From a virus (taxonomy: Duplodnaviria; Heunggongvirae; Uroviricota; Caudoviricetes), in IMG/VR virus record IMGVR_UViG_2695420728_000007, positions 1 to 9,543 of that record: a stretch of DNA of 9,543 bases. The stretch is one strand, 5' to 3'. Under the pieces are notes generated by a model. That model made no database searches and had not been told where the DNA came from. It saw only the letters and a list, made by a program, of their open reading frames with translations. This document shows positions 942 to 1,166 of the stretch, one piece after another (within the stretch, counting starts at the first letter, position 1; each line of letters starts with the position of its first letter). Position numbers and translations under genes: made by a program.

Positions 942-1166
942 TCAACACACTGGCTGTAATGCAGCGGATACCATGCGGCATTTAGCGGCATTCATCGTAC
1001 ACTCCACGGTTAGCTCTTCATTCGTGGCATTCACCTGAAAGGTCCGGGAGTGTAATTGCGTACATTTACCACTGAACGAACCTTCAACAAGAACACGACC
1101 ACGCTGCAAAATACGGAACGGAATTGTTCCCTGAAAAGGTTCTACGGTTACCCGTAATTTCTTCAT
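942..1166 (-). CDS. Hypothetical 74-aa protein, translationally coupled to Rz
   Basis: ATG at 1166-1164 overlaps the Rz TGA stop (1165-1163) as ATGA. GGAGGA lies 5 nt upstream of the ATG inside the Rz 3' end. Product [31 protein letters not shown]... has no family I can recognise. Confidence 0.5.

Follow-up and report, generated by a model that had tools for sequence, protein, structure and literature searches.

ORF74, an intact phrog_2571 gene behind Rz and probable accessory cargo of the late operon in lambdoid prophages

The ORF74 locus

We have analyzed a small open reading frame (ORF) of 74 codons, here called ORF74, in a 9,543-nucleotide (nt) stretch of viral DNA (IMG/VR virus record IMGVR_UViG_2695420728_000007, positions 1 to 9,543), referred to below as the window. 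The window corresponds to the late region of a lambdoid Escherichia coli prophage, read on the minus strand. Positions 700-1700 match several E. coli chromosomes with 100% identity, and a prophage of the enteropathogenic E. coli (EPEC) strain E2348/69 with 99.9%. ORF74 lies directly behind the spanin genes Rz and Rz1 and on the same strand. Its ATG (1166-1164) overlaps the TGA of Rz (1165-1163) in the tetranucleotide ATGA, and a Shine-Dalgarno sequence, GGAGGA (1175-1170, minus strand), is found 3 nt before the ATG, within the 3' end of Rz. An initial annotation made from the letters alone had described this gene, its overlap and its ribosome binding site, and the coordinates it gave (942-1166) are confirmed. 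It had also regarded the gene as almost certainly translated with the spanins. We find that ORF74 is an intact gene and that its overlap with Rz is a derived accident; the gene is probably accessory cargo of the late operon. The coordinates of the features discussed are collected in Table 1.

ORF74 is a genuine and intact gene

ORF74 is a genuine gene, because it has homologues of conserved length, a ratio of nonsynonymous to synonymous substitution rates (dN/dS) that indicates selection, a confidently modeled fold and remote relatives. A search of 5.8 billion proteins returned 49 homologues, most of which come from E. coli and Salmonella, have exactly 74 amino acids (aa) and are 61-97% identical; all are annotated as hypothetical, so that the possibility raised in the initial annotation, that the ORF is not conserved, does not hold. 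The fetched loci provided 20 distinct 74-codon alleles, all with identical start and stop positions. Over the 54 pairs of these alleles with dS >0.15 the median dN/dS was 0.35; it was 0.30 in codons 1-55 and 0.42 in the C-terminal part, which is more variable. The AlphaFold2 model, for which a 16-sequence alignment was the input, has a mean predicted local distance difference test score (pLDDT) of 88.5 and a predicted template modeling score (pTM) of 0.73, and is all-beta in character, with six strands and one short helix.

The protein belongs to phrog_2571. Residues 1-73 match columns 100-172 of the 291 columns of this hidden Markov model (HMM) with an E value of 2.7e-28, and the same HMM matches gp60 of phage mEp237 (YP_007111433.1, E 4e-22) and gp20 of phage HK225 (YP_007112153.1, E 7.5e-20). 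A profile that we built independently also retrieves these two proteins, together with a 286-aa protein of phage PhiR46_1. No family had been recognized in the initial annotation, which is correct for Pfam, NCBIfam and PADLOC but not for PHROGs. When 1.84 billion cluster representatives were searched with a profile, the family was extended to stand-alone proteins of 72-81 aa that share the motif F-R/K-V-x-Q-x-G-x-x-L-x-E/D...S-G-K...Y-x-V-D-A, and a second profile search found remote relatives in Yersinia, Xenorhabdus and Salmonella; Klebsiella relatives were found as well. Across this wider family the cysteines present in the E. coli alleles are not retained. Only chance-level matches (E >= 0.064) were returned by a sequence-profile search of the PDB, and a search of the literature found nothing on the phrog_2571 family.

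The match to internal columns of a long profile raised the question whether ORF74 is a truncated piece of a longer gene. This was rejected: the additional columns come from a few fusion proteins of 280-286 aa, such as XSB42772.1 of PhiR46_1 (~286 aa), in which the phrog_2571 domain is internal and which explain the length of the profile. The profile thus spans proteins of about 286 aa with the domain in the middle, whereas ORF74 is the domain alone. ORF74 is the intact form and not a fragment, because 74 codons is the modal length in E. coli and Salmonella and the relatives elsewhere are stand-alone proteins of 72-81 aa; this settles a check that the initial annotation had proposed. The longer variants P0001 and P0011 and the fusion P0002, in which DUF1737 precedes ORF74, are one-off products of frameshift, stop loss or deletion. 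P0002 (125 aa) is encoded on an E. coli contig of 1,477 bp and joins the DUF1737 N-terminus of the nanS-p-like esterase to a full-length ORF74, which implies that a deletion in that one genome removed the esterase body and all that follows it, through the end of Rz.

ORF74 is present in 1,189-1,244 of 5,426 complete E. coli genomes (about 22%), with up to 6 copies per genome. Among 50,697 phage records searched by tblastn it was found in 26, including Stx2c, Stx2a and Stx1 phages and H-19B. The RefSeq entry, WP_000736383.1 of E2348/69, is annotated as hypothetical. The family is already in RefSeq and PHROGs, and it is neither rare nor new to the databases. Exchange between alleles is indicated by the copy in a Stx2a phage (locus L002): its flanks, which are the 3' end of Rz and the downstream spacer, are nearly identical to those of the window, while the interior of the ORF is closer to the divergent alleles of Salmonella and of locus L091 and the protein is 74% identical to ORF74. 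The pattern points to recombination between alleles inside the gene.

Origin of the overlap with Rz

The Rz protein encoded in the window has 164 residues, and the Rz profiles end before its C-terminus, at residue 155 in PHROG and at residue 153 in Pfam. The C-terminal extension reported in the initial annotation therefore exists, but with a length of 9-11 residues and not of about 13. Comparison with other alleles accounts for the extension. The codon at 1192-1190 is CTG in the window, whereas relatives have the TAG stop codon of Rz here; it is CCG in locus L094 and CAG in the Stx2a phage L002. In the Salmonella locus L089, Rz ends in ...TQCIK at the TAG, which is in the same frame as the TGA of the ATGA overlap, and the ATG of the ORF74 homologue follows 23 nt downstream, after GGGGGA. 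Of 92 family loci sampled, 55 have a sense codon at this position, and with it a 164-aa Rz and the overlap, and 33 keep the TAG. The stop-retaining alleles have equivalent GGAG or GGGG motifs before the ORF. Three loci are of a third type, represented by L091, in which 442 nt separate the ORF from the end of the phage's own Rz and the sequence before the ORF resembles an Rz 3' end (ggtgcattaaatcgcctttttgttatcaggagaatgtATG); the L091-type cassette has thus carried an Rz 3' stub along with it.

Comparison of these alleles shows that the ancestral layout was Rz, a TAG stop codon, a 23-nt leader containing the Shine-Dalgarno sequence, and ORF74, with the overlap derived by stop loss. Loss of the TAG makes Rz run nine codons further, up to the TGA that overlaps the ATG of ORF74. 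The first codon of the resulting tail varies among L, P and Q and the last among T, I and V, as expected if the tail itself is not under selection. The overlap thus arose secondarily by accident and is no argument for a shared function, although it probably aids translation of ORF74. A functional tie to the spanins is not borne out: overlap and tail are by-products of the change of TAG to CAG, CTG or CCG, roughly one in three sampled loci still has the TAG 23 nt upstream, without any overlap of the two genes, and the family is also found far from Rz, as described next.

Positions of the family in other phages

Three positions in the late operon were found, all with the family gene on the late-operon strand. 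Copies behind the spanin genes are present in E. coli and Salmonella, with packaging modules of either the HK97 type or the lambda Nu1/A type, and also in mEp237 (gp60), Yersinia (behind DUF2570/LysC spanins) and Klebsiella; the spanins that precede the family gene in Yersinia and Klebsiella are not of the Rz type. Copies between Q and the holin gene, the position that stx occupies elsewhere, occur in Salmonella (L100-L105) and Xenorhabdus (L106). Among the tail genes, gp20 of HK225 is located between I and J and is followed by an annotated terminator, and a near-identical gene in the unrelated phage SaltyDalty lies just behind the tape-measure gene, with a tail-protein gene on either side. 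An ATGA overlap with the upstream gene is present in both of these copies. The slot behind Rz is itself variable: in related phages it contains ORF74, Rha and a TonB-like gene, KilA-N, or nothing, and many phages with Rz, for example Lys8385Vzw, are without ORF74. Taken together, these locations show that the family is mobile between positions in the late operon.

In Salmonella, the cassette between Q and the holin gene (phrog_2571 with or without phrog_4280) has direct repeats of a terminator-like hairpin of 24-26 nt on both sides (GGCTGCGCTAATGCGCGGCCTTTT). The two copies in L100 are identical at 24 of 24 bases, and a second pair was located in L103. Such flanking repeats may mark insertion or movement of the cassette. 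The Xenorhabdus locus L106, with a phrog_2571/phrog_4280 pair upstream of the holin gene, has in its post-Rz slot a weak match to the Pfam family Acb2_Tad1_hairpin, a sponge directed against the cyclic oligonucleotide-based antiphage signaling system (CBASS) and Thoeris. It may be that the position behind Rz generally accommodates accessory or anti-defense genes.

In several loci a second small gene, phrog_4280 (67-73 aa), directly follows the family gene at a distance of about 40-100 nt. These are the Salmonella L089-type and L100-type loci, the Yersinia L097-type, Xenorhabdus L106, the Klebsiella L109-type and mEp237 (gp61, L085). The encoded protein has the sequence MFVExGLKPDPDNxGWVLGWxVVRxxPWHLxGVYAT...YGSHRLGSDDF, and the family has no assigned function. 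The gene is truncated in L091 and missing from the window, L094, L103, L105 and HK225. A tblastn search of the window with six phrog_4280 proteins gave nothing below an E value of 0.14, and the spacer downstream of ORF74 contains no remnant of a partner gene. In Serratia and Pseudomonas phrog_4280 occurs without a phrog_2571 gene, and phrog_2571 is also found alone; the two are loosely linked and are not obligate partners. phrog_4280 is the wider-spread of the two, with homologues in Klebsiella, Serratia, Rahnella, Pseudomonas and others.

Transcription and translation

No sigma-70-like site was found on the ORF74 strand between 500 and 2300 in a scan that considered the consensus only. In the spacer downstream (744-941) there is no terminator-like hairpin or notable structure (fold z-score -0.15), and an Rfam scan of 700-1300 gave no match. 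Terminators follow the copies in HK225, L103, L100 and L091. In the Salmonella locus L103 a terminator-like hairpin is also present upstream, with its end about 20 nt from the start codon, which leaves no room for a promoter, so that only a terminator-resistant polymerase would reach the gene. The upstream hairpins, the lack of a promoter and the location on the late strand argue for Q-dependent late expression, and on this layout we infer that ORF74 is expressed late. Its transcript would start at the Q-dependent late promoter and be shared with the holin, endolysin and Rz/Rz1 genes, and translation would begin from its own GGAGGA with the assistance of ribosomes that finish Rz.

Comparison with known accessory genes

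ORF74 shares with other members of phrog_2571 that they are small stand-alone proteins encoded on the late strand of lambdoid phages. Several better known genes occupy similar positions. In lambda, bor is found in the variable slot that ORF74 occupies here, between Rz and the packaging genes. It is on the opposite strand and encodes a lipoprotein expressed in the lysogen; ORF74, unlike bor, is on the late strand and encodes a soluble protein. ORF74 shows no sequence relation to bor, with no lambda record among the 26 matches listed in the tblastn search of phage records with ORF74. The Salmonella and Xenorhabdus members resemble the cargo genes stx and nanS-p in that they occupy the same Q-to-holin slot behind terminators, and would therefore depend on antitermination by Q; in the window this slot contains the nanS-p-like esterase. 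Stx and NanS-p differ from ORF74 in having known activities and, for Stx, a signal peptide, whereas ORF74 has neither. Morons of the HK97 gp15 type are, like HK225 gp20, extra small genes between conserved late genes, followed by a terminator. HK97 gp15 is a membrane protein with a promoter of its own; genes of the ORF74 family differ in that they overlap the upstream late gene and no promoter is seen. The Acb2 and Tad1 anti-defense sponges are comparable to ORF74 in size and accessory nature.

Possible functions

The predicted protein is basic (pI 9.5, 8.3 kDa), with no signal peptide, lipobox or membrane segment, and its N-terminus is not hydrophobic. The maximum Kyte-Doolittle hydropathy over 19 residues is 0.76, compared with 3.07 for the membrane segment of Rz. 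With no hydrophobic segment, ORF74 is expected to remain cytoplasmic, where it has no access to the periplasmic portions of the spanins. Fold searches with the model gave generic beta-sandwich matches only. We consider it probable that ORF74 is an intact, functional member of phrog_2571 and accessory cargo that travels in the late operon of lambdoid prophages. It would most probably be a soluble cytoplasmic beta-sandwich that binds another macromolecule late in the lytic cycle, and our best guess, weakly held, is that it acts as a dispensable host-interference or counter-defense factor. Elsewhere the family protein may act with the neighboring 70-aa phrog_4280 partner, which is missing here.

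Several observations weigh against this interpretation. The dN/dS values of 0.25-0.5 represent only moderate purifying selection, scans of Pfam, NCBIfam and PADLOC with ORF74 and its relatives assigned no family, and the known anti-defense genes belong more often to the early class. Late-only expression and translational coupling are inferred from the arrangement of the sequence. For the coupling we considered a predicted AU-rich hairpin that pairs the U-rich part of the Rz tail with the Shine-Dalgarno and AUG region (z = -1.7 to -2.9). As firm proof of obligatory coupling by occlusion of the Shine-Dalgarno sequence it was rejected, since it barely exceeds shuffled sequences and the Salmonella allele lacks it; it is a weak hint only.

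The location of ORF74 directly after Rz/Rz1 with an ATGA overlap, and the position of most family members just after a spanin gene, are what would be expected of a lysis accessory that is co-translated with Rz and tunes spanin or holin activity, with the Rz tail as an adaptive feature. This is highly improbable, given that the periplasmic spanin domains are out of reach of a protein without signal peptide, lipobox or membrane segment, that about a third of loci retain the Rz stop and lack the overlap, that the end codons of the tail vary freely, that family members are found before the holin gene or within tail gene clusters as well, and that many phages with Rz, such as Lys8385Vzw, do without ORF74. 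We conclude that ORF74 does not itself belong to the lysis machinery. Location in the late operon would suit a minor virion or assembly protein, for example a tail-tip accessory made together with the structural proteins, and the copies in HK225 and SaltyDalty are indeed inside tail gene clusters; in protein P0064 a weak, sub-threshold PF09327 tail-tip segment is fused before the domain. But the same gene is found beside unrelated modules (HK97-type TerS/HNH, lambda Nu1/A and Terminase_4), and close relatives of these phages are without it, which a structural component would not allow, so that a role in the virion is very improbable. The idea that ORF74 is a decaying or non-functional ORF, a passive passenger of recombination between Rz and the packaging genes, could draw on the not very low dN/dS, the variable C-terminal third and the frameshifted, truncated or fused variants P0001, P0011 and P0002. 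It is extremely doubtful in view of the confident model fold, recognizable relatives in at least five genera, and a length of 74 codons and a stop position that are kept at 61-64% protein identity, whether E. coli is compared with Salmonella or E. coli prophages with one another.

A classical moron, expressed from the resident prophage and of benefit to the lysogen through, for example, superinfection exclusion or phage defense, would show the presence or absence among otherwise similar phages and the several positions observed here. The terminator annotated after HK225 gp20, the repeated terminator hairpins that bracket the Salmonella cassettes and the high frequency of the gene in E. coli prophages also fit. 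Such a gene should, however, have a promoter, and none was seen upstream in the window, while the hairpin in L103 leaves no room for one; the copies in HK225, SaltyDalty and the window overlap the preceding late gene, and no terminator was detected downstream in 744-941. PADLOC gave no match and the protein is soluble, which known exclusion proteins such as HK97 gp15 are not. That ORF74 is such a moron is distinctly unlikely. It is distinctly unlikely, too, that the phrog_2571 protein, alone or with phrog_4280, is a new kind of Q-dependent late effector whose production is confined to cells committed to lysis. Such an effector might be a lectin-like beta-sandwich that is released on lysis, by analogy with Stx and NanS-p, or else an inhibitor of host defenses that sense late phage proteins. 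Spread among the Q-to-holin, post-Rz and I/J slots might then involve the repeated terminator hairpins that flank the Salmonella cassette.

Other features of the window

The remaining genes are listed in Table 1 in the order of the minus-strand reading. In identical prophages, the HNH gene is followed by a terminase of the HK97 type. The endolysin gene is separated from Rz by three tiny hydrophobic ORFs (70, 43 and about 38-51 aa) that are hypothetical in RefSeq and outside the canonical lambda lysis cassette; a strong terminator-like hairpin is located inside the first few codons of the 70-aa ORF. Between the tRNA genes and the esterase gene the DNA (5500-6900) is AT-rich and contains two ORFs without a Pfam family. 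In this low-GC stretch, which is the slot equivalent to that of stx, a full-length match to the small RNA STnc100 (RF02076, 132 bits, E 1e-29) was found, and ISEc13 is inserted at the corresponding place in E2348/69.

Table 1. Coordinates of features in the window (minus-strand order) and in other loci
Sequence	Feature	Position	Strand	Description
Window	DUF968 gene			First in gene order
Window	RusA gene
Window	Antiterminator Q gene	7382-8203
Window	tRNA-Met			After Q
Window	tRNA-Arg			After Q
Window	ORF	6518-6871	-	117 aa
Window	STnc100 match	6096-6285	-	Small RNA
Window	ORF	5735-6070	+	111 aa
Window	Esterase gene, nanS-p type	3618-5489		623 aa; DUF1737/SASA/DUF6645
Window	Holin gene			P21 type
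Window	DUF1327 gene
Window	Endolysin gene	2300-2833
Window	Three tiny ORFs	1757-2222	-	Hydrophobic
Window	Terminator-like hairpin	2209-2177
Window	Rz gene (i-spanin)	1163-1657	-	164 aa; ATG at 1657; PF03245, E 4.4e-51
Window	Rz1 gene (o-spanin lipoprotein)	1252-1437	-	Embedded in Rz, +1 frame; PF06085, E 1.7e-21
Window	Rz read-through tail	1166-1192	-	Nine codons, LAFYYPEDT; former 5' leader of ORF74
Window	ORF74	942-1166	-	74 aa; phrog_2571
Window	Non-coding spacer	744-941		198 nt; between ORF74 and DUF3950 gene
Window	DUF3950 gene	543-743	+	Convergent with ORF74
Window	HNH endonuclease gene	136-501
L002	ORF74 allele	2692-2916		Stx2a phage
L089	TAG stop of Rz	3975-3977		Salmonella
L089	ATG of ORF74 homologue	4001		Salmonella
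L089	phrog_4280 gene	4265-4471		Salmonella
L085	phrog_4280 gene	2806-3027		mEp237 gp61
L097	phrog_4280 gene	5341-5559		Yersinia
L106	phrog_4280 gene	1736-1951		Xenorhabdus
L109	phrog_4280 gene	4001-4204		Klebsiella
L100	Hairpin repeats	4960-4983; 5574-5597		Salmonella
L103	Hairpin repeats	4958-4983; 5299-5324		Salmonella
L106	Acb2_Tad1_hairpin match (weak)	3699-3941		Xenorhabdus; post-Rz slot

Significance

ORF74 is a real but ordinary feature, one more uncharacterized accessory gene, and does not overturn current understanding. What is new here is the origin of the overlap and the Rz tail by stop loss, the three positions of the family in the late operon and its frequent pairing with phrog_4280. 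For annotators, this means that a 164-aa "long Rz" is a read-through variant and not a separate spanin type. Experiments on ORF74 are narrowed by the findings that the gene is intact, that it is mobile cargo of the late operon and that it stands outside the spanin machinery. Roughly one fifth of complete E. coli genomes have the gene, and the carriers include O157:H7, EPEC E2348/69 and ST131 strains as well as Stx1 and Stx2 phages; to judge from the late-operon layout, ORF74 is probably made whenever these carrier prophages are induced.
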